Shown one piece after another: positions 2,984 through 16,586 of a DNA stretch of 64,000 nt. Position numbers and translations under genes: made by a program. How positions within the stretch are numbered: the first letter of the stretch is position 1; every line of letters begins with the position of its first letter. This DNA comes from Myxococcota bacterium (GTDB taxonomy: Bacteria > Myxococcota_A > UBA796 > CAJQPC01). The notes beneath the pieces are model-generated. The model searched no databases. It was not told where the DNA came from and worked only from the letters and a program-made list of their open reading frames with translations. The stretch covers positions 25,661-89,660 of the forward strand of contig JAZAMN010000032.1 of the NCBI GenBank assembly GCA_036229005.1, written 5' to 3'.

Positions 2984-4654
2984 ATGTTGGAATCGAGCGA
3001 GCGCTTCACGCGGCGCTTTCGCCTGTCCTTGTTGGGGCTGGCGATCATGACGGCCGGCTGCTTTGTGGCCCAGACCCACGCCATCTCACCGACCTCCGGT
3101 GACGCGGCGGCGGTGAACGTGGCCGGTCGCCAGCGCATGCTGAGCCAGCGGGTCGCCCTGCAGACCGCGGTGCTGGCCGACACCAGCCTGTCCCAACAGG
3201 AGCGCCGCCGGGCCGAGGGCAAGCTCGAAGCCGACCTCACCGAGATGGCCCACGCCCTGGAGGGCCTGACCCAAGGCGACCCGGACATGGGCCTGGATGG
3301 CGAGCTGAGCCCCGCGCTGCGTACGCACTACTTTGGAGAGCCCGGCCACCTGAGCGGCCGCACCCAGGACTTCCTGGACAGGGCCCGAACGGTCCTGGAC
3401 CGCTCCCGCGCCACCCAGACCGTCACGAACAGCGACCGCGTGCACGTGGTGGTCGGCGCCGAGCAGCTACTCCCCCCACTGGACGAGGCCGTCACCCTCT
3501 TCGAAGGCCAGGCCTCCAACAACGTCGAGTCCGCCGTGCGGACCACGGCGGTCCTGACCCTCAGCATGATGGTGGCCCTGTTCGCCCTGTGGCTGTGGAT
3601 CTTCCGCCCGCTCGGACAGGCGCTCCGCGAGGAGGAGGCCCGGCGCGCCGCCGTCTCCGACCGGAAGGCCGCAGAGGAGCGCCAGCAGGGCTTCGCGCGC
3701 GAGGTCAGCAGCGCCCTGGAGGTCGTCGACAGCGAAGAGGAGCTGCTCTCCCTGCTGGAGCGGGCCATGGCCGACAGCGAGCCCCACCCCACCGAGCTGC
3801 TGCTGGCCGACTCCAGCCAGGCCCACATGCACCGCGTCGCCGTCCACCCCGAGGCCGGCGCGCCCGGCTGCGGCGTCGGCACCCCCCACGCCTGCCCCGC
3901 CGTCCGCCGCGGCCGCCCCCTGAGCTTCGAGAGCAGCCAGCGCCTGGACGCCTGCCCGCGCCTGAACGCCCGCGGCCCCTGCTCCGCGTTCTGCGCGCCG
4001 GTCACCTTCATGGGGCGCGCCCTGGGCGTGCTCCACGCCACCGGCCCCGAGGGCCAGCCCCCCAGCCCCGCGTTCGCCCAGCGCACCGAGTTCCTGGCCG
4101 GCGCCATGGGGGCCCGCCTGGGCAGCATCCGCAGCCTGGAGCGCATCCAGCTTCAGGCCGCCACCGACCCCCTCACGGGCCTGCTCAACCGCCGGGCCCT
4201 GGAGACCGAGGTCCGCAAGGTGCAGCGCCGCTCCGGCGTCTACGCCGTCGCCATCGCCGACCTGGACCACTTCAAGCGCCTCAACGACACCCTGGGCCAC
4301 GACGCGGGCGACCGCGCCCTGACCACCTACGCCAAGTGCGTGCAGGAGGTCGTCGGCGACCAGGGCTTCGTCTCCCGCTTCGGCGGCGAGGAGTTCGTGC
4401 TCGTCTTCCCCGACCACCACATGGAGGCCGCCGCCCGGATCCTGGAGCAGGCCCGCGAGCGCCTGGCCACCATCACCGCGGGCGGGGACACGCCCTGCTT
4501 CACGGCGAGCTACGGCGTCGCCGACTCCCGCCACGCCGACGACCTGGCGGGCATCATCTCCGTCGCGGACGCCGCCCTGCTGCGCGCGAAGGAGGCCGGT
4601 CGCGATCGCGTTCTCCTCGCCGATGCCCAGAGCGTGGAGCTGCACGCGGCCTGA
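2984..4654 (+). CDS. Diguanylate cyclase (PilJ/NarX-like sensor, GAF-like, GGDEF)
   Basis: P-box-like VNVAGRQRMLSQR, two TM segments, TDPLTGLLNRR, DLDHFKRLND, RFGGEEF. Confidence 0.9.
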   Translation: MLESSERFTRRFRLSLLGLAIMTAGCFVAQTHAISPTSGDAAAVNVAGRQRMLSQRVALQTAVLADTSLSQQERRRAEGKLEADLTEMAHALEGLTQGDPDMGLDGELSPALRTHYFGEPGHLSGRTQDFLDRARTVLDRSRATQTVTNSDRVHVVVGAEQLLPPLDEAVTLFEGQASNNVESAVRTTAVLTLSMMVALFALWLWIFRPLGQALREEEARRAAVSDRKAAEERQQGFAREVSSALEVVDSEEELLSLLERAMADSEPHPTELLLADSSQAHMHRVAVHPEAGAPGCGVGTPHACPAVRRGRPLSFESSQRLDACPRLNARGPCSAFCAPVTFMGRALGVLHATGPEGQPPSPAFAQRTEFLAGAMGARLGSIRSLERIQLQAATDPLTGLLNRRALETEVRKVQRRSGVYAVAIADLDHFKRLNDTLGHDAGDRALTTYAKCVQEVVGDQGFVSRFGGEEFVLVFPDHHMEAAARILEQARERLATITAGGDTPCFTASYGVADSRHADDLAGIISVADAALLRAKEAGRDRVLLADAQSVELHAA

Positions 4655-4683: not shown

Positions 4684-5664
4684 ATGCGCCTCACCGCCTT
4701 CGATCCCCCCTCCCTGCGCGCGCTGGAGCACGCCCTCCACGCCGGGCGGACCTGCACCCTGGCCACCGATCGACTCCCCCGAAGCTGGCGCAGCTCCCAG
4801 ATCCTGCCCTGCTTCGATGGGGTCGATGTCCCCTCGCACACGATGCAGCGCACCTTGCGCGCGCAGCTCCCACCGACGGGCCAACAGGGCAAGAAGGGGC
4901 CGCGGGTGACCGCCGTGATCCCCACCCACCGCCAGACCCCAGTGGGGCTCCAGGCGCTGCGGGACCAGGACCTCCCGGTCGAGGTGCTCGTGCTCGCGAA
5001 CGGCCCGGTGGCCCCCCAAGGCGACCGCGTGCTCCGCGTGCCCTGGCTGGGCCACGGCCCCACCCGCCAGGCGGCCCTGGAGCACATCGACAGCGAGTAC
5101 CTGCTGTTCACGGTGGACGACGCGCTCCCTCGGGGGCGGGGCTGCGTACGCGCGTTGATCCAGGCCCTCGAAGACGGCGGCTACGACGCGGTGACCGGCC
5201 GGCAGGTGCCCTGGCCCACGGCGGATCCCCTGACCCGACGGCGGCTGGCCCAGTGGACGCCCTTTGGGACGCAGCACAGCCCGCGGCCCTGGAGCGATCA
5301 CGTGTTCACCCTGCTGCGCACCGAGACCCTGCGCGCGCACCCGCTGCCCTCTGTCCCCATCGGCGAGGACATGCTCTGGTCGCGCGGCAAGCGCATCGGC
5401 TACGCGCCCCAGGCGCCGGTGATCCACTCCCACGTCCGGGATCCCAAGGCGCTCTACCAGCGCACCCGGGACCTGCACCTGCAGCACCAGCTCGCGGGGG
5501 ATGCAGCGACCGTGCCCAGCCTGTCCGCGCTGGTCGCTGCGCTGCCCGGGACCCTGCGTCCGACCCTGGAGGGGGGCCCTGGAGAGTTCATGTGTCAGCT
5601 CGCGGAGCTGGCCGGACAGCTCCGGGCGAGCCAGCTCAGCGGGAGGCGGCAGCGTGAGGACTGA
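4684..5664 (+). CDS. Glycosyltransferase family 2 (rhamnosyltransferase-like)
   Basis: VTAVIPT, GHGPTRQ, LLFTVDDA, GEDMLW, VIHSH motifs. Confidence 0.75.
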   Translation: MRLTAFDPPSLRALEHALHAGRTCTLATDRLPRSWRSSQILPCFDGVDVPSHTMQRTLRAQLPPTGQQGKKGPRVTAVIPTHRQTPVGLQALRDQDLPVEVLVLANGPVAPQGDRVLRVPWLGHGPTRQAALEHIDSEYLLFTVDDALPRGRGCVRALIQALEDGGYDAVTGRQVPWPTADPLTRRRLAQWTPFGTQHSPRPWSDHVFTLLRTETLRAHPLPSVPIGEDMLWSRGKRIGYAPQAPVIHSHVRDPKALYQRTRDLHLQHQLAGDAATVPSLSALVAALPGTLRPTLEGGPGEFMCQLAELAGQLRASQLSGRRQRED

Positions 5665-6430
5665 GGCCTTCTACCTGCCGGTGGGTGCGGGCTTCTCGCC
5701 CACGCCCTCGACCACGGGCCCCTGGTCCCCGGAGCACCAGCACGGCGGCCCCCCCTGCGCGCTGCTGACCGGCGCCCTGCAACGGGCGGTGCCCCCCGCG
5801 TTCCGCCTGGCCCGCGTCACCGCGAACTTCCTGCGGGCGGTCCCCCTGGCCGAGCTGCGGGTGGAGACCCACTGCATCAAGGCCGGGCGCAGCACCCAGC
5901 GCTGGCGGGCGGTCCTGCACGCCGACCGGCCCGTCCTGGAGATGGAGGGCCTCTTTGTGCGGGCCAGCGATGGGATGGCCGACCTGGACAGCACGGCTGG
6001 ACCGGAGTGGGCCGCGCCGGAGTCGGTGGCGCCCTTCACTTTCCCCTTCTTCCAGACGGAGCACGGCTACCACCGGGCGGTGGACCTGCGCTTCTGGGAG
6101 CAGCCCTGGGGCCCGCCCCGGGTGCGGGTCTGGGCCCGCCCGCTGCAACCCTTGGTCGCCGGCTGGGAAGACAGCCCCGAGCAGCGCGTGGTCCTGCTCA
6201 CCGACGCCCAATCGGGCATGGCCCCGCCCCTGGACCCCCTGCGCTTCAACTACGCCAACCCCGACCTGAGCCTGGCCTTCACCCGGCGTCCCCAGGGCGA
6301 GTGGGTGGGGCTGGACATCCAGGCCCAGGTGGGCCCCGAGGGCATCGGGCTGGCCCACAGCCGCCTGCGGGATCTGCGGGGTGCGGTGGGGGTCGCGGAG
6401 CAGAGCTTGATCGTGCGGGCGCGCAAGTAG
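5654..6430 (+). CDS. Acyl-CoA thioesterase family protein (double hotdog)
   Basis: GPWSPEHQHGGPP, LARVTANFLRAVP, NPDLSL...GEWVGL, G.A.QSL. Confidence 0.85.
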   Translation: MRTEAFYLPVGAGFSPTPSTTGPWSPEHQHGGPPCALLTGALQRAVPPAFRLARVTANFLRAVPLAELRVETHCIKAGRSTQRWRAVLHADRPVLEMEGLFVRASDGMADLDSTAGPEWAAPESVAPFTFPFFQTEHGYHRAVDLRFWEQPWGPPRVRVWARPLQPLVAGWEDSPEQRVVLLTDAQSGMAPPLDPLRFNYANPDLSLAFTRRPQGEWVGLDIQAQVGPEGIGLAHSRLRDLRGAVGVAEQSLIVRARK

Positions 6431-6688
6431 GGGCGAACGCATCGGGCGGCGCGCAAGTCCGGGCGAACGCAACGGGGCGGCGCGCAAGTCCGGGCGAACG
6501 CAACAAACGCCTCCCTCTCCGGCCCCATCGAGCCCGGCGATGTTGCGTTCAGAGCCGCTTGCGCAGGCCGTCGTTGCGTTCACAGCCACTTACGCAGTGC
6601 GGTGTTGCGTTCACAGCCACTTACGCAGTGCGGTGTTGCGTTCACAGCCCCTTGCGCAGCGCTGTGTTGCGTTCAGGGCCGCTTGCGC
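6418..6688. repeat. Element copy 1: head-to-head arrays of ~31-bp units (3 left + 5 right) around a short spacer
   Basis: Left-arm GAACGC at 6435/6465/6496. Right-arm GTTGCGTTCA-N6-CTTRCGC at 6542/6573/6604/6635/6666. Confidence 0.9.
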
Positions 6689-7496
6689 CGACTCGCCAGC
6701 GCACACTCCGGCTCCAGGGCCCCGGCCCCGAGGGAATTCCCGGAAAGCGCGGGTCTCCAGCCAGCCTGGCGACCAGCCGCAGAGCCTCGGGCGGGGCGCT
6801 CGACGTCCGCGACACGCTCCCCCGGTGTACGCCCACAAAGTCCGCGACCTGTACCGGGCTGACCTCTGCCAGCGCCAGCGCGGACTGGATGAACAGGGTG
6901 CGCGACGGCCCGCGCTGGGTCTGCTCCACCATGGGTGCGCGCAGCGCCTCGGACACCGCGGCCTGGATCTCCAGCAGGGTCGGCACCCCCTGGGACACCG
7001 GGAGCAGGGTGCCCTGCTGGTCCACGTGGGCGTCGGCGCTGGTGTAGCGGTGCAGGGCTTCGGGCTCTCCCACTCGGCGACGCACCGGACGCAGAGTCAG
7101 CCCCACCGCGTCCCGGTAGGTGGACCAGGGCCAGCACAGCGGGTCCTGGACCATGCCGGCGCGGCAGGGGTTCAGGTGGATGTAGCGCCCTTCCCGCCGC
7201 CGCTTCTGGGCATCCGCTGCCCAGCGGGGAGCGGGCACGGGCTCCAGCACCCGGCCACGCAGCCCCCGCCGGTGGTTCAGGCTGCGGGTGTGGCCGCTCA
7301 GCGCGCGCGCCAGCGGCAGCCGCAGGTCGCGCTCGTGCTGGACGTGGACGTGGTTGGGCATCAGGCAGATGGCCTCCGCTCCGGGGAGCGCGCGGGTGAG
7401 TCGAGCCCAGAGAGCAGCGGCCTCCTCCCAAGTCTCGAAGAGCAGGCCTTGGCGGGTTCTTGCGACGTGGTGGTACATGCTGGGGAGCGTCTGCAC
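6642..7496 (-). mobile_element. REP-associated tyrosine transposase (RAYT, Y1 HUH) with C-terminal HTH; start uncertain (7496 GTG or 7478 ATG)
   Basis: YHHVAR, CLMPNHVH (HUH), RYIHLNPCRAGMV.DP..WPWSTY (catalytic Tyr region), C-terminal VQVADFVGVHRGSVSR helix-turn-helix. Confidence 0.85.
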
Positions 7497-7545
7497 AGCC
7501 CGTGCCGCCTCCAGAATCCGCGTGTGGTCGGCCTCCGCACCCAAA

Positions 7546-7567
7546 GGGTGTCGACAATCCGACACCC
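7546..7567. repeat. Perfect 8-bp-stem hairpin upstream of the RAYT (REP-like)
   Basis: GGGTGTCG-acaatc-CGACACCC. Confidence 0.55.
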
Positions 7568-7587
7568 CCCGTCGGCCCTTCGACACC

Positions 7588-8469
7588 TCAGCCGACGCCC
7601 GCCAGTCCCTGGGCCAGGTGCTCCACCAGCGCCTGCACCCGCGGCGAGCTGCCCCGCCCCGGCGGCAGGATCACGCGCACCGGCGCCGGCGCCCACTGCG
7701 CCTCGGGCAGCAGCGCACACAAGCGCCCCGTCGCCAGCTCCGGGGCCACCAGCCAGCGCGCCAACAGCGCCAGCCCAAAGCCCTGCCGAGCGAAGGCCAG
7801 CAGCGCCGCGCTGTTGTCCGCCTGAACCGGGCCGCTCACCCGCTGATCCCGCCAGCGCCCCTCCCAGCCAAGCCGCCAACTCCCCGGCCCCACGTGGGGG
7901 TGCAGCAGGCAGGCGTGGTCGGCGAGCTGCTCGGGCGAGCTCGGCCGCCCCCGCGCCGCCAGGTACTCCGGCGAGGCCACCAGCACCCGCTCGCTGTGTG
8001 CCAGCGTGCGCCCCCGGAAGCTGGAGTCCCGCGGCGCCCCCACGCGCACGGCCAGGTCCACGCCCTCCCGGATCAGGTCCACGTAGTGGTCCGAGTAGAG
8101 CAGTCGCAGCCGCACCCCCGGGTGGGCCCGCAGGAAGGCCGGCAGCAGCGGCTGGACGTGCAGGCCCCCAAAGACCACCGGCAGGCTCAGGGAGATCTCC
8201 CCCTCCAGCGCGCCCCCCCGCGCCGCCTCCTGCGCGCGCTCCCAGGCCGACAACACACCCCGGGCCTGCTCCAGGAAGGCCTCGCCCTCCGGGGTCAGGC
8301 GCTGGCTGCGGGTGCTGCGGTCCAGCAGGCGCGCGCCCAGCTCGTCCTCCAGCGCGGCCACCCATTTGCTGACGGTGGATTGGCCCACGCCCAGCTCCCG
8401 GGCGGCGGCGGAGAAGGAGCCCAACTCCACGCTGCGGGAGAGGGCTCGGAGGGCGTCGATGCGGTCCAT
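7588..8469 (-). CDS. LysR-family transcriptional regulator (CrgA-like)
   Basis: GSFSAAARELGVGQSTVSKWVAALEDELGARLLDRSTR; DLIREGVDLAVR. Confidence 0.95.
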   Translation of the reverse strand: MDRIDALRALSRSVELGSFSAAARELGVGQSTVSKWVAALEDELGARLLDRSTRSQRLTPEGEAFLEQARGVLSAWERAQEAARGGALEGEISLSLPVVFGGLHVQPLLPAFLRAHPGVRLRLLYSDHYVDLIREGVDLAVRVGAPRDSSFRGRTLAHSERVLVASPEYLAARGRPSSPEQLADHACLLHPHVGPGSWRLGWEGRWRDQRVSGPVQADNSAALLAFARQGFGLALLARWLVAPELATGRLCALLPEAQWAPAPVRVILPPGRGSSPRVQALVEHLAQGLAGVG

Positions 8470-8560
8470 TCAGTCCATTTTGGCACGAATACAAGTCCAA
8501 GAAGCCCATTTCCCAGTCCAATCCAGCGAGACACCTTGGGTGGGAACAAGGAGCTTCGAC

Positions 8561-9427
8561 ATGGAGACTGGACTGAGACTGGGTGTGATGGGACTGGGCG
8601 CGATGGGCAGCCGCATGGCCCGCCGCTGGCTTGGGGCTGGGGCAGCGCTGCGCGTCCACAACCGGAGCCCGCAGCGGGCCGACGCCCTCCTCACCGCCGG
8701 GGCCCAGTGGTGCGCGAGCCCCGCAGAGCTGGCCACCACCAGCGAGGTCATCGTGGAGATCTCCCGCGACGACGCCTCCGCCCGCGCCCTCTGGGAGGCG
8801 GCCCTGCCGGGCATCCAGCCCGGCACCTTGGCGATCAGCGCCAGCACCCTCACCCCCCAGACGTGGCGGGAGCTCGCCGCTTCGCTGCGCGCCCGCGGCG
8901 CGGTCCCCCTGGACGCGCCGGTCGTGGGCTCCCGCCCGCAGGCCGAGGCCGGCGCGCTGGTGCACCTGGTGGGCGGGGACGCCGCGGCGGCGGAGCGTGC
9001 CGCGCCCCTGCTCGCGGTGAGCGGAAAGCTGCAGCACCACGCCGGCGGCGTGGGCGACGGGATGGCCCTCAAGCTGGCCGTCAACGCCTTCTTTGGCGTC
9101 CAGGTGGCCGCCCTCGCCGAGCTGCTGATGGGCCTGGAGCGGGCGGGGCTGGACAGCCAGTCCTCGCTGGCGCTGCTGGGTGCGCTGCCGGTGACCGCAC
9201 CAGCGATGAAGGGGTTGGGCCAGCTCATGTTGGAGGCCAAGGCCCCGCCCCTCTTCCCAATCGAGTTGGTGGCCAAGGACCTGGCCTACGCGGCCGAGCA
9301 CCTGGGCCCCGCCCCCATGAGCGCCCGCGCGGCGGAGGTCTACGCGGCGGCCTGTGAAGAGGGCCTGGGCGGGCTGAACATCCAGGGCGTGGTCGAGCGC
9401 TACCGGGGAGCCCACAAGTCCTGCTGA
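8561..9427 (+). CDS. NAD(P)-dependent oxidoreductase, 3-hydroxyisobutyrate dehydrogenase family
   Basis: GLGAMGSRMA, LDAPVVGSRPQAEAG, G.G.ALKLAVN, KDL.YA. Confidence 0.9.
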   Translation: METGLRLGVMGLGAMGSRMARRWLGAGAALRVHNRSPQRADALLTAGAQWCASPAELATTSEVIVEISRDDASARALWEAALPGIQPGTLAISASTLTPQTWRELAASLRARGAVPLDAPVVGSRPQAEAGALVHLVGGDAAAAERAAPLLAVSGKLQHHAGGVGDGMALKLAVNAFFGVQVAALAELLMGLERAGLDSQSSLALLGALPVTAPAMKGLGQLMLEAKAPPLFPIELVAKDLAYAAEHLGPAPMSARAAEVYAAACEEGLGGLNIQGVVERYRGAHKSC

Positions 9428-9682
9428 ACGCAACAAGCCGGCGCGCAAGTCCCGCCGAACGCGACAAGCCGGCGCGCAAGTCTCGGTGAACGCAACAAGC
9501 CGGCGCGCAAGTCCGGGCGAACGCGACAACTCCCCCGTTCCACGGCCCCAGCACGCCCGGTGCTGTTGCGTTCAGACCCGCTTGCGCAGCCCGCCGTTGC
9601 GTTCAGACCCACTTGCGCAGCCCGCTGTTGCGTTCACACCCACTTGCGCAAGCCGCCGTTGCGTTCAGACCCGTTCGCGCGC
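9410..9682. repeat. Element copy 2: head-to-head arrays of 31-bp units (4 left + 4 right)
   Basis: GAACGC at 9426/9457/9488/9519 and GTTGCGTTCA at 9565/9596/9627/9658. The central spacer resembles that of copy 1. Confidence 0.9.
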
Positions 9683-10168
9683 CAGCACCCGCTCCCGCAG
9701 CGCCGCCAGCCACCCTGCGGCCTCCGCGCTGCCCTCATTGGGGCAGAAGGGCGCCTGTCGCTTGTGGGTGGTGGCGCTGTAGGGGCCCTCGATGAGCTCG
9801 AAGAGCAGCGCCGTCTCGCTCAGACACACCACCGTGTGCCAGGTGCGCGGTGGAATCTCGACCCCCCGCAGCGGGCCGTCCGCCGAGATCACCGAGACCT
9901 GCTCCAGCGCCCCCGCGTCGTCGAAGCGGCAGACGGCGGCGCGCCCCTCCAGGGCCATGAAGACCTCGACCTTGTCGGGGTCGGCGTGGCGGTGCACGGG
10001 CACGTAGGTGTCGCGGGTCAGGGCGTTGAGCATGCGCTGCAGCAGGTCGCTGTGCTCGTGGTAGCGCAGGATGGCGCGGCCCCGCGGGCTCTTGGCCGCC
10101 AGGTCGTGGGCGCGGGCGAACTGCGGGGCGCCGATGGGGCGCAGGCCGGGGGGAAACTCGGGCTTCAC
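9665..10168 (-). CDS. WbuC-family cupin-fold metalloprotein
   Basis: SPRGR, LQRMLNA..DTYVPVHRH, E.F..L.G, EIPP.TWHTVV, E..EGPY. Confidence 0.85.
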   Translation of the reverse strand: MKPEFPPGLRPIGAPQFARAHDLAAKSPRGRAILRYHEHSDLLQRMLNALTRDTYVPVHRHADPDKVEVFMALEGRAAVCRFDDAGALEQVSVISADGPLRGVEIPPRTWHTVVCLSETALLFELIEGPYSATTHKRQAPFCPNEGSAEAAGWLAALRERVLARERV

Positions 10169-13853: not shown

Positions 13854-16586
13854 ATGAGCGACTTCTCCACCGCCCTGCAGGAGGGCAGAGACCTCATCGC
13901 CGCGGCCCGCCGGGGGGAGCTCCCCGGTGTGCACGCGCGGAGTGAGGAGATCCAGGAGCTGTCCCGGCAGCTCGACACCGGCGCCAGCGTGCTGCTGCTG
14001 GGCGAGGACGGCGTGGGCAAGACCGCCCTGATCCACGGCCTGGCGCACCACTGGCGCGACGGCGACGCCAGCCTGATCGAGCTGAGCACCAGCGCGGTCA
14101 TGGCCGGCACCAAGTACCTGGGCGAGTGGCAGTCCAAGGTCAAGGCCCTGGTCGAGCAGGCCCAGGCCGCCAGCGCCGTGCTCTACATCCCCGACATCTG
14201 GAACCTCCCGAACGTCGGTCGCACCGACAAGAACGACAACAACCTGCTGGACGCCCTGCGGCCCTACCTCCAGTCGGGGCGCCTGCAGCTCCTGGCCGAG
14301 GTCAGCCCCGGCCTGCTCCGCCAGATGGAGCGCACCCCCGGCTTCGTCCCCCTCTTCCGCAAGCAGCGCGTACACCCCATGGCCCCCGCCGCCGTGCGCG
14401 CCTGCGTCCAGCGCGAGTGCCAGGAGGCCGCCGTCGCCCTGGATGACGAAGGCCTGGACACCCTGCTCAGCCTGTCCTCGCGCTTCTCCAACCGTGCCCA
14501 GCCGGGTCCCGCGCTGGCCAGCTTGGGGGCGTTGATCCGACAAGTGGAGGCCGACCCCAGCCTCCCCTCCCCCCTGGGCCCACCCCAGGTCGAGCGCAGC
14601 TTCTCCGAGCTCTCCGGCCTGCCCATGTTCGTGGTCAGCCGCAGCGAGACCCGCTCCGCCCGCGACATCCGCGCCTTCTTCTCCGAGCGCATCGTCGGCC
14701 AGCAGGAGGCCATCGAGGCCGTCATCGAGTGTATCGCCCTGTTCAAGGCCGGCCTGCAGGACCCCGACAAGCCCATCGGCACCTTCTTGTTCGTGGGCCC
14801 CACCGGCGTCGGCAAGACCGAGCTGGCCCGCACCCTGGCGCGCTTCCTGTTCGGCAGCGAGAGCCGCCTGCTGCGCTTCGATCTCTCCGAGTTCAAGGAC
14901 TACCACTCCTTCGAGATGCTGGTCGGCAGCGCCCGCGACCCCAGCCGCCCCGCCGCCCTGGTCGATCCCATCCGCGCCCAGCCCTTCCAGGTCGTGCTCT
15001 TTGACGAGCTCGAGAAGGCCCACCCCAACGTCTGGGACCTCCTGCTCGGCCTGCTGGATGAAGGCCGCATCACGCCCCCCGGTGGCCGCACCGTCGACTG
15101 CCGGAACACCATCGTCATCGCGACCTCCAACGTGGGCGCCCAGGACAGCCAGCGCACCAGCGTCGGCTTCGACGGCAAGAGCGAGCGCACCGCCCGCCGG
15201 GACATCGAGCGCGCTCTGGAGCAGCACTTCCGCCCCGAGTTCCTCAATCGTTTCCAGCACCTGGCCATCTTCCACGCCCTCACCCCCGAGCAGGTCCTCC
15301 AGGTCGCCCGCTGGGAGCTGCGCCGCGTCGTGGACCGCGAAGGCATCGCCGCCCGCAACCTGGTCGTCGAGGTCGAAGACGAGGCCCTCCAGGTCATCGT
15401 CGACAAGGGCTTCGACCCCCGCTACGGCGCCCGCGGCCTCAAGCGCGAGATCCAGCGCCGCCTGGTGCTCCCCCTGGCCATGACCCTGATGGAGACCCAG
15501 GTCAGCCCCGGCAGCATCCTGCGCGTCCAGGCCCGCAACGACCGCCTGCAGGTGCGCGTCATCGAGACCCGCGAGGCCCGGCTCCAGCGCCGCCGTAGGG
15601 AGCCTCCCCGTCTTCCGGAGGGAGGGCGCCTGGATCTTCCGGAGCTCCGCAGCAGAACACAAGCCCTCAGTCCGCGCATCACCGCTCTGTCATCGGGTGT
15701 CGGCGAGGACACGCTGCTCGACTCCCAAGCGGAGCTGGAGCACGCCCGCGCGCAGCCTGGGTTCTGGAACGACCCGGAGCAGGCCGCCCGCGTGATGCGC
15801 GATCTGGACCAGATCAACCTCAGCCTGGACCGCATCGAGCGCCTGCGCCTGAGCATCGAGGAGCTTCAGGCCGACGCCGCCCAGGCCAGCGCTACGGCGC
15901 TCTCCCGCATGGCCGAGCGGCTGCTGCGCCTGGAGGACCGTCTGCTGCTGGCCGAGCGCCAGATGCTGCGCATGGGCCCCAGCGGCACCTGGGACGCCCT
16001 GGTCCACATCGAGCCGCAGGGCAAGGAGGGCTGGCGCGTCCGAGACCTGCTGGTCAAGCTCTACGAGGGCTGGGCGGCGGACCGCCACTCCCTGTCCAGC
16101 CGCCTGCTGCTGGAGCCCCGCACGAAACGGCAGCCCGCTCTGCTCGCCGTCGAGGGCACCTGGGCGCACGGCTGGCTGGCCCACGAGTCCGGCCTGCACC
16201 GCCTCCGCCTGGAGAAGGAGTCGGTCATGGCGCGCGTGCGCGTGGTCCCCTGGACCGACGCGGTGGCCGAGCCCGAGTTCCTGCGACACAAGGCCCTGTC
16301 CAAGGAGACCGGCGCCTACGGCGGCACCCTGCGCTCGCGGGTGGAGCTCAAGGGCGGGCTGGTGCTCCAGAGCGGCGGGACCCTGGCCGACAACCGCGCC
16401 CTGGCCGCGGAGCTCTACGGCTCCTGGCTCCAGGCCCCCGAGCCCCTGGACGAGGTCGTGCGCCGCTACCGCCTGGAGCCCATGCAGCTCAAGGACCACG
16501 CCACCGGTGTGGACACCCAGCGCAAGGACGCTCTGGGCGCCCGCTTCTTCCACACCCTGCTGGAGCAGCGGGTGGACCTGCTCTGA
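13854..16586 (+). CDS. Clp/Hsp100-like double AAA+ ATPase fused to a degenerate RF2-like peptide release factor module
   Basis: GEDGVGKT; FLFVGPTGVGKTELA, LFDELEKAH, FRPEFLNR, YGARGLKR. C-terminus: PGFWNDPEQA, LY.GWA, G..AHGWL..ESGLHRL, VRRY.L.P..LKDHATG. Confidence 0.8.
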   Translation: MSDFSTALQEGRDLIAAARRGELPGVHARSEEIQELSRQLDTGASVLLLGEDGVGKTALIHGLAHHWRDGDASLIELSTSAVMAGTKYLGEWQSKVKALVEQAQAASAVLYIPDIWNLPNVGRTDKNDNNLLDALRPYLQSGRLQLLAEVSPGLLRQMERTPGFVPLFRKQRVHPMAPAAVRACVQRECQEAAVALDDEGLDTLLSLSSRFSNRAQPGPALASLGALIRQVEADPSLPSPLGPPQVERSFSELSGLPMFVVSRSETRSARDIRAFFSERIVGQQEAIEAVIECIALFKAGLQDPDKPIGTFLFVGPTGVGKTELARTLARFLFGSESRLLRFDLSEFKDYHSFEMLVGSARDPSRPAALVDPIRAQPFQVVLFDELEKAHPNVWDLLLGLLDEGRITPPGGRTVDCRNTIVIATSNVGAQDSQRTSVGFDGKSERTARRDIERALEQHFRPEFLNRFQHLAIFHALTPEQVLQVARWELRRVVDREGIAARNLVVEVEDEALQVIVDKGFDPRYGARGLKREIQRRLVLPLAMTLMETQVSPGSILRVQARNDRLQVRVIETREARLQRRRREPPRLPEGGRLDLPELRSRTQALSPRITALSSGVGEDTLLDSQAELEHARAQPGFWNDPEQAARVMRDLDQINLSLDRIERLRLSIEELQADAAQASATALSRMAERLLRLEDRLLLAERQMLRMGPSGTWDALVHIEPQGKEGWRVRDLLVKLYEGWAADRHSLSSRLLLEPRTKRQPALLAVEGTWAHGWLAHESGLHRLRLEKESVMARVRVVPWTDAVAEPEFLRHKALSKETGAYGGTLRSRVELKGGLVLQSGGTLADNRALAAELYGSWLQAPEPLDEVVRRYRLEPMQLKDHATGVDTQRKDALGARFFHTLLEQRVDLL

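Follow-up and report, generated by a model that had tools for sequence, protein, structure and literature searches.

Helically phased 31-bp repeat arrays paired with a RAYT-like HUH protein in a Myxococcota genome

Background

What are the repeats that surround a RAYT-like transposase gene, and how would the enzyme encoded alongside recognize them? The question is raised by a stretch of 64,000 nt (hereafter the window) corresponding to positions 25661-89660 of contig C32 in a Myxococcota assembly of 6.4 Mb with 70% G+C (genome label G000), whose DNA was matched in marine metagenome runs. In this window, a gene encoding an HUH-Y1 protein lies between two copies of a bipartite repeat element. 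An original prediction, made from the letters alone, proposed an atypical RAYT-dependent repeat family representing either a non-autonomous element or the ends of a cargo-carrying unit. The first of these two options fits best the data reported here: on balance, we favour a non-autonomous element on which the cognate enzyme docks in duplex DNA, with one protein per 31-bp unit contacting both conserved boxes, the rows of protein on the two arms coming together across a bent spacer, and Y105 nicking and transferring strands so as to copy the element after the stop codons of genes.

Results and discussion

Two sister elements flank the HUH gene

The two elements of one architecture that had been predicted are both present, with ends that could be refined to 6421-6688 (copy 1) and 9412-9680 (copy 2). 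Copy 1 is composed of three plus five units whose arms point outward from the centre: the left arm (6421-6504, minus strand) has three units separated by steps of 30 and 31 bp, which agrees with the single 30-bp step noticed in an otherwise 31-bp period, and is followed by a central gap of 37 bp (6505-6541) and by a right arm (6542-6688, plus strand) of five units with 31-bp steps. This right arm overlaps the 3' end of the HUH gene, as had been seen, so that copy 1 covers the last 47 bases of the open reading frame (stop codon at 6642-6644). Copy 2 has four minus-strand and four plus-strand units, with a left arm at 9412-9527, a gap of 37 bp at 9528-9564 and a right arm at 9565-9680. The thioesterase, dehydrogenase and cupin-fold genes that border the two copies end inside them, with their stop codons in outer units; that of the thioesterase gene is in the outer unit of the copy 1 left arm. 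One contig of run X3 is without one 31-bp unit in the right arm of copy 1 (joint at 6572-6604, side 98).

Both copies belong to a family, designated A, whose unit consensus drawn from 242 units is GTTGCGTTCA-N6-CTTGCGC-N8 and in which the 37-bp gap is the commonest class (13 of 31 complete elements). They are direct sisters with a similarity of 0.71, ranking second among the 78 family-A pairs having a 37-bp gap, and their flanks are not common to both. The related central spacer described earlier is indeed common to these two copies because they are sisters; across family A only the length of the spacer is constrained, and no spacer sequence or nick motif is conserved. The statement that the copies bracket the RAYT-like gene together with a LysR-family gene and a dehydrogenase gene also stands, the last two products having Pfam matches.

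Five element families are phased on the DNA helix

A period scan combined with five motif scans detected 124 elements in the genome, falling into five sequence families of 32 (A), 12 (B), 20 (C), 14 (D) and 46 (E) elements. The genome search for the unit motif that had been recommended thus yielded 32 family-A elements, and the two-unit pattern gave 169 matches versus none for the pattern reversed; the family-A pattern is therefore not due to chance. All five families share the same unit, with a 10-bp box (box 1), six variable bases, a 7-bp box (box 2) and eight variable bases, and the unit step is 31 bp in 609 of 617 cases, 30 bp in seven and 62 bp in one. Arms read outward in all of the 117 two-armed elements; the other seven of the 124 are one-armed and have no gap value. 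Six of these lie no more than 350 bp from a contig end, or next to a repeated end described below, and one is internal.

The gap between arms takes values of 16/17, 26/27, 37/38, 46-48, 58, 68, 88-90, 99-101, 109, 119/120 and 130 bp, for which the best period is 10.38 bp (n = 117, R = 0.95). The 21 distinct gap values alone gave R = 0.90, versus a maximum of 0.67 in 5000 random sets. Units thus recur every three helical turns, and the gap between arms shifts by whole turns only.

Longer spacers carry further features. The motif CAA-N5-TGAAAT, which we take to resemble the IHF consensus, occurs in 12 of 13 long spacers of families A and C (at offsets of 22, 32/33, 43 and 64), in none of 38 short ones and in one of 41 long spacers of families D, E and B; seven genes of the HU/IHF family are found in the genome. 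By eye, family-E spacers (88-130 bp) show short A/T tracts at about every turn, and both of their edges are lined by an inverted motif, ACCGAT...ATCGGT, in place of the IHF-like one. The two strands of an element also differ in composition, one being rich in C and the other in G (arm-arm Spearman 0.58). A replication-strand bias was considered and discarded, since the local skew was followed in 66 of 113 elements, no better than in 412 of 706 control intergenic stretches.

Variable letters matched at 0.67 between neighbouring units of the same arm, at 0.34 between opposite arms of one element and at 0.41 with other members of the family, in line with the earlier remark that units are more alike within an arm. 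These values bear on the idea that, by analogy with CRISPR or TIGR systems, the arrays yield transcripts that are cut into guide RNAs of ca. 31 nt. Two fixed boxes alternating with two variable stretches do recall the TIGR anatomy; against a guide array, however, neighbouring units of an arm have homogenized instead of unique variable letters, the two arms are on different strands, a search of Rfam gave nothing at E up to 1, and the partner is a protein with HUH and helix-turn-helix parts. We consider this explanation scarcely credible, and the ca. 31-nt small RNAs envisaged in the original prediction found no support.

The HUH protein and its cognate arrays

The HUH-Y1 gene (6642-7478, minus strand) encodes 278 aa with the motif H49-V50-H51, the tyrosine Y105 and, at ca. 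170-250, a predicted C-terminal helix-turn-helix resembling DnaA domain IV. Its start was set at the ATG that fits homologues, the numbering of P0002 beginning six codons earlier. In all 20 homologues aligned, H49, H51 and Y105 are unchanged. In the predicted model (pLDDT 91.6), the N-terminal part matches E. coli TnpA-REP (4ER8), which was the top Foldseek match (E 4e-5) and gave a structural match (VIA) with Z 12.2 and rmsd 3.1 over 140 aligned residues, while residues 172-248 match DnaA domain IV (1J1V; Z 10.2, rmsd 1.9, 77 aligned). The protein is thus predicted to join a TnpA-REP domain to a DnaA domain IV. Its relationship to RAYTs rests on the modelled fold, the motifs and the 4ER8 profile match; family profiles gave no such backing, as no Pfam match was obtained, PF01797 matches nothing in the genome, and the NCBIfam RAYT model NF047646 scored 31.6 bits, under its cut-off of 80.

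Five HUH paralogues occur in the genome, the other ones being 53-64% identical to the window protein. The element nearest to the cognate paralogue lies at 43 bp for family A, 5 bp for B, 4 bp for C, 164 bp for D and 3.7 kb for E. Each family is beside its own HUH gene, and the window is the home locus of family A.

The same pairing was observed in relatives. Among 61 genomes of the order, 24 encode the HUH family, the number of matches per genome ranging from 0 to 18, and the family-A pattern with its 169 matches in this genome occurs once each in two other genomes and in none of 58. The homologue set was built from 70 of 94 matches outside the genome, 15 further loci and the five own loci, 86 having a near-full gene. 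Of the few homologues with a named source, one (P0018) comes from a Myxococcota record. A bipartite 31-bp array, each time with its own boxes, was found within 400 bp of 50 of the 74 close homologues, as the suggestion that such arrays should flank homologues would have it; by period, the corresponding counts were 50 at 31 bp, 10 at 32 and 0-1 at 27-30 and 33-36. None of 12 distant homologues has a 31-bp array within this distance. Boxes vary from locus to locus and the gaps stay on the lattice: 41 of 55 automatically registered gaps, six of which come from this genome, are at 77-80, 87-91 or 99-101. In each of three relatives, copies of the cognate family are scattered over its own genome, and among the five genomes searched each time two-armed elements were found in that genome only; the four others gave a single stray match with two mismatches. 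The idea of an unusual repeat family linked to a RAYT-like enzyme is thus borne out, with five families matching five paralogues in this genome and arrays at most close homologues. Outside the order, homologues at L058 and L064 (records titled Acidobacteriota), L060 and L069 also have 31-bp bipartite arrays, the gap being 131 in L058 and L064, on the same lattice.

Covariation points to a different part of the protein for each box

Enzymes and arrays were compared in 46 pairs, five of which come from this genome; 48 had been registered, two being dropped as not registrable (L154 and L070), and 12 were re-registered by eye. In a sliding-window partial Mantel analysis, box 1 peaked at residues 223-234 (r 0.27, max-corrected p 0.001) and box 2 at residues 61-78 and 82-90 (r 0.24, p under 0.001). 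With overall identity regressed out, the C-terminal helix was linked to box 1 (r 0.27) and not to box 2 (-0.02), and the HUH surface to box 2 (0.33) and not to box 1 (-0.01), a two-region result that was unchanged without the 12 hand-registered loci. Among 16 representatives sharing less than 50% identity, the link between HUH surface and box 2 held (r 0.24, p 0.01). The top single columns were G226, S229 and R230 for box 1, and R71 and Y8 for box 2; no protein window covaried with positions 7-10 of box 1. GT[TC]GC boxes occur with eight of eight proteins whose helix starts with [HN]R[ASG], over four changes on the tree, and the ninth such box goes with ARS.

Based on the model and on the structure of DnaA domain IV, residues 223-231 would form the recognition helix. 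In a profile alignment to 4ER8, the counterparts of R71, L84/E85 and Y105 are K82, W94/Q95 and Y115, respectively. In the accessible text describing E. coli TnpA-REP (PMC8266576), K82 belongs to the DNA-binding helix and contacts the REP bulge, the GTAG being contacted from beta1 and around beta4. Together, the covariation and the predicted fold suggest that box 1 is read by the DnaA-IV helix and box 2 by the HUH face that holds the REP in E. coli.

Hairpin or duplex

A hairpin formed by each unit could be ruled out, since two-unit arms fold no better than shuffled sequences (mean z -1.1 to 0.5). Whole elements do fold back (z -3.6 and -5.9), as a result of their symmetry. This would suit a REPIN-like reading, in which the whole strand folds into one long imperfect hairpin recognized single-stranded by the HUH domain, as would the fact that HUH-Y1 enzymes act on folded single strands according to the accessible part of PMC8266576. 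Box 2 also starts with GTAG in families D and E, which are among the three of 46 families to do so; family A has CTTG. Variable letters of opposite arms, however, match less well than those of unrelated elements (0.34 versus 0.41), so that fold-back, of the kind expected for a REPIN or BIME doublet, is unselected; moreover, unit numbers in the two arms are unequal, and a 10.4-bp lattice is not needed for a hairpin loop. We hold such a folded target to be very improbable. The lack of hairpins in the arms, the unmatched letters of opposite arms, the three-turn period and the phased gap point instead to recognition of the units as duplex DNA, as far as sequence can tell.

Probable spread of the elements and the cargo question

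Six dispersed or inverted sister pairs with similarities of 0.77-0.95 were detected in unrelated surroundings, their common flanks being of unequal length (41, 63-82, 112 and at least 335 nt). No conserved motif was found beyond the outer units of dispersed elements, and target-site duplication counts were within the shuffled range for k = 4, 5, 6 and 8. Dispersed sisters with unequal flanks suggest that copies multiply, sometimes with flanking DNA, and give no demonstration of a block with fixed ends. Spread is also indicated by the near-confinement of family A to this genome among 61 and by the absence of an element at the window locus in two congeners; mobility of the elements is to this extent deduced from sequence comparison. 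Models based on a composite transposon, an IS200-IS605 element or a MITE were set aside, given that no outer motif was found, that duplications were in the shuffled range and that the paralogues are only 53-64% identical.

The second option of the original prediction deserves closer attention. In this view, the two copies would terminate a composite unit (element, HUH gene, LysR gene, dehydrogenase gene, element) that moves or excises as a block, with cassettes gained or lost between direct sisters. Copies 1 and 2 are indeed direct sisters, as are five of five sister pairs lying less than 3 kb apart with a similarity above 0.6. Elements of the same family bracket the HUH gene at eight of the 50 array-bearing loci, in each case better as direct than as inverted copies, with one pair being 98% alike; the window pair spans 3 kb and the others 1.1-1.4 kb. 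The LysR, dehydrogenase and HUH genes are missing at this place in three congeners. In two of them (G002 and G003), an element-free interval of ca. 50 bp separates the cupin gene from the end of the gene matching window positions 4684-5664, glycosyltransferase-like when judged by eye, and the third (G001) has a different insert of 1.2 kb at this locus. The missing block, however, includes the thioesterase gene, which is outside copy 1. Most of the 124 elements are also without a same-family neighbour (neighbours less than 12 kb apart are of the same family in 14 of 33 pairs), one near-identical sister pair is inverted, and the divergence of the paralogues leaves no recent duplicate of the window protein. 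As to empty sites in related genomes, no element occurs at this place in G002 and G003; at two loci in conspecific strains no empty site was well supported. Contigs of runs X1-X3 span the whole locus with no well-supported excision joint, nor did the strain data give a well-supported excision or empty-site joint in C57:90000-109909. With direct sisters and bracketing on one side, and with neither fixed ends, duplications nor an excision joint on the other, a composite unit seems to us rather unlikely.

Several other observations were made around elements elsewhere in the genome. Coverage in X2 and X3 is close to nil over a 2.9-kb stretch between two direct family-B sisters on C57, but as no contig bridges this stretch, it was not counted as an excision. 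Also on C57 (100189-103278, L201), the element at 100189 looks chimeric, its left arm and spacer matching an inverted copy at 94368, and its right arm with at least 335 nt of flank matching a copy at 103041. At positions 4609-4707 of L201, contigs of X2 and X4 differ densely from the reference just outside the outer unit of a family-B element; that of X3 does not. In four family-E elements, an identical foreign sequence of 125-136 nt starts in the right arm at the same point of box 1 and runs to the contig end (C22:84038-84173, C29:34400-34524, C58:6635-6770 and C71:243263-243387); we interpret it as a probable collapsed multi-copy element with family E as its target. Contigs C63 and C28 have identical starts (1-141), with a gene start and an IS-like end, beside a family-B and a family-D element. 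A second repeat of ca. 200 nt occurs beside family A, B and E elements (C4:163764-164325, C54 beyond 61270, and C57 near 94000 and 106500).

Gene context and a palindrome shared with DNA-uptake genes

By our own gene calls, convergent genes surround 54 of the 108 elements scored, tandem genes 49 and divergent genes five, the 16 elements with no gene call on one side being outside the 108; genome-wide, 870 of 5409 gene pairs (16%) are convergent. Two palindromes of the TGTCG-N6-CGACA type, 21 bp apart, are located upstream of the HUH gene (7549-7585) and are likely regulator sites. In its strict form, the motif stands upstream of 34 of 5483 called genes, among which are comEC, radC, ssb and the HUH genes of families A, B and E, and a profile of the motif adds HUH loci C and D and a YifB gene, which we take to be comM. 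The palindrome was also found within 200 nt upstream of 32 of 71 close homologues, versus one control stretch. Expression of the HUH genes is thus predicted, from these sites, to follow that of DNA-uptake genes. Strong double palindromes stand before four further genes (106, 536, 95 and 270 aa; C59:6781, C54:11338, C14:87223 and C57:36434) that have no Pfam or passing NCBIfam match and are candidate members of the same regulon.

Such a context may also be expected of a domesticated enzyme, for which the arrays would be host scaffolds at gene ends, either serving competence by nicking or annealing incoming single-stranded DNA or insulating convergent genes, with spread as a by-product. The shared palindrome and the excess of elements between convergent genes are both in its favour, and so is the fact that five of six listed strain differences in the HUH gene are at third codon positions. 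The enzyme is, however, patchily distributed among relatives, and box families turn over within a genus, a situation that fits a selfish element better than a fixed host function; we regard a host role of this kind as distinctly unlikely.

Proposed mechanism and points against it

For the preferred non-autonomous element, binding and movement may be pictured as follows. The 31-bp units would likely be duplex docking sites for the HUH-DnaA-IV protein encoded alongside, each accommodating one protein whose DnaA-IV helix (223-231) sits on box 1 and whose HUH face (helix 61-72 with R71, strand 1 and loop 82-90) reads box 2. From the geometry, three to five proteins would stand along the same face of an arm, and the rows of the two arms would meet over a bent spacer, helped in long A/C spacers by the IHF-like site. 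The complex would then present a single strand to Y105 and, if HUH chemistry applies, nicking and strand transfer would generate new copies, gains or losses of units and variable flanks. In this way the enzyme probably copies the element to new gene ends. A more specific version, in which a distinct type of HUH mobile element has a helically phased, origin-like duplex platform replacing the hairpin, two separately retargetable surfaces (the DnaA-IV helix for box 1 and the former REP-binding helix for box 2), polymerization on two mirror arms over a bent spacer, and induction alongside the competence genes that lets it, sometimes together with neighbouring genes, spread in the course of natural transformation, is put forward only tentatively.

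Several points weigh against this scheme. Studied TnpA-REP enzymes act on single-stranded DNA according to the accessible text of PMC3333891 and PMC8266576, and boxes 1 and 2 are slightly complementary (0.32 versus 0.25 in shuffled sequences). Covariation was obtained with kinship only partly controlled, the two-region test used regions chosen from the same data, and among the 16 representatives below 50% identity the link between helix and box 1 was lost (r 0.03, p 0.40). As regards pairing, 24 of 74 close homologues are without an array within 400 bp, and in family E, the largest with 46 elements, 3.7 kb separate the presumed enzyme gene from the closest copy. No target duplication, no conserved outer end and no well-supported empty site (conspecific strains, two loci) were found that would define the moving unit or the nick site. 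Finally, dprA and three helix-hairpin-helix (comEA-like) genes are without the strict palindrome.

Genes around the elements

The acyl-CoA thioesterase gene (5654-6430, plus strand) lies outside copy 1, yet belongs to the block missing from congeners at this place. Between the two copies, the HUH gene is followed by the LysR-family regulator (7588-8469, minus strand) and by the NAD-dependent dehydrogenase (8561-9427, plus strand), identified in Pfam by its NAD_binding_2 and NAD_binding_11 domains, for which the window query gave no match in four relatives. The stop codon of this gene and that of the cupin-fold gene (9665-10168, minus strand), which belongs to the conserved backbone, are both in outer units of copy 2. 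Elsewhere in the window, a putative sensor protein with a GGDEF-like end (2984-4654) and a putative 900-aa ClpA-like ATPase with a release-factor-like tail (13854-16586) were recognized by eye.

Relation to known systems and significance

The published systems are considered here from the accessible text of each paper. TnpA-Y1 subclass 2.1(.2) (Quentin et al. 2018, PMC6006769) corresponds to RAYT group 1 (Bertels et al. 2017, PMC5581495) and to TIRYT/TIRtron (Di Nocera et al. 2013, PMC3733652), and the architecture found here likely fits this group, as judged by modelled domain make-up rather than by a tree. In common with it are an HUH-Y1 core followed by a C-terminal DnaA_C/HTH-like domain (here predicted), multiple paralogues in a genome, with a separate flanking repeat for each, and the lack of REP hairpins nearby. 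TIRYT and group 1 genes, however, are described with terminal inverted repeats containing GGGGWSAS or with no repeat found, whereas 31-bp arrays with outward arms on a helical lattice occur here. When such inverted repeats were looked for, the bracketing elements proved to be direct, and the upstream palindrome, which is loosely similar, is confined to one flank of the gene and is found before comEC, radC and ssb as well. Quentin et al. (PMC6006769) did not decide if DNA is read by the C-terminal domain; here, a helix of this domain covaries with box 1.

Pseudomonas REPINs and their group 3 RAYTs also combine non-autonomous inverted doublets with several enzyme-repeat families per genome (PMC5581495), but REPINs are fold-back doublets of short palindromes, unlike the multi-unit direct arrays with unpaired variable letters of this genome. 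BIME-1 likewise is an inverted pair with a linker that often carries an IHF site (PMC3333891). With the REPtron (TnpA-REP 4ER8 and REP/BIME), the system shares the fold, the catalytic tyrosine, and cognate repeats found beside the gene and dispersed at gene ends (PMC3333891, PMC8266576). A further likeness is that the repeat covaries with residues whose counterparts in 4ER8 are K82 and W94/Q95, but there is no hairpin per unit and no invariant 5' GTAG (CTTG in family A), and the added DnaA-IV domain, the three-turn period and the phased gap are further differences.

In oriC- and iteron-type origins and in relaxosomes, a DnaA-IV-type or HUH protein has oppositely oriented rows of helically phased sites, together with an IHF bend. 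The elements differ from such origins in being multi-copy and GC-rich, with no AT-rich unwinding tract, and the protein is without an AAA+ or helicase domain; the likeness is a geometric analogy only. No description of phased 31-bp arrays was found in the literature on HUH/RAYT repeats, where coverage of subscription papers was thin and where figures and supplements on TIRYT and subclass 2.1 may list such flanks, and our literature search found no paper linking TnpAREP with competence or natural transformation.

Group 1/subclass 2.1 is the largest RAYT group in two surveys, which in their accessible text leave its DNA target open (PMC6006769, PMC5581495). The window provides one such enzyme with an exact candidate site, predictions at the level of residues (223-231 for box 1, R71 for box 2, and Y105) and a phase rule. 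If the proposed scheme is true, an HUH-Y1 transposase would recognize duplex DNA by means of a cooperative array, a mode undescribed for the family in the literature found, and competence would be linked to the spread of REP-like repeats. Under the more specific, tentative version with two retargetable surfaces, the natural enzyme-site pairs, more than 40 in number, would offer a recognition code for a two-part programmable nickase.

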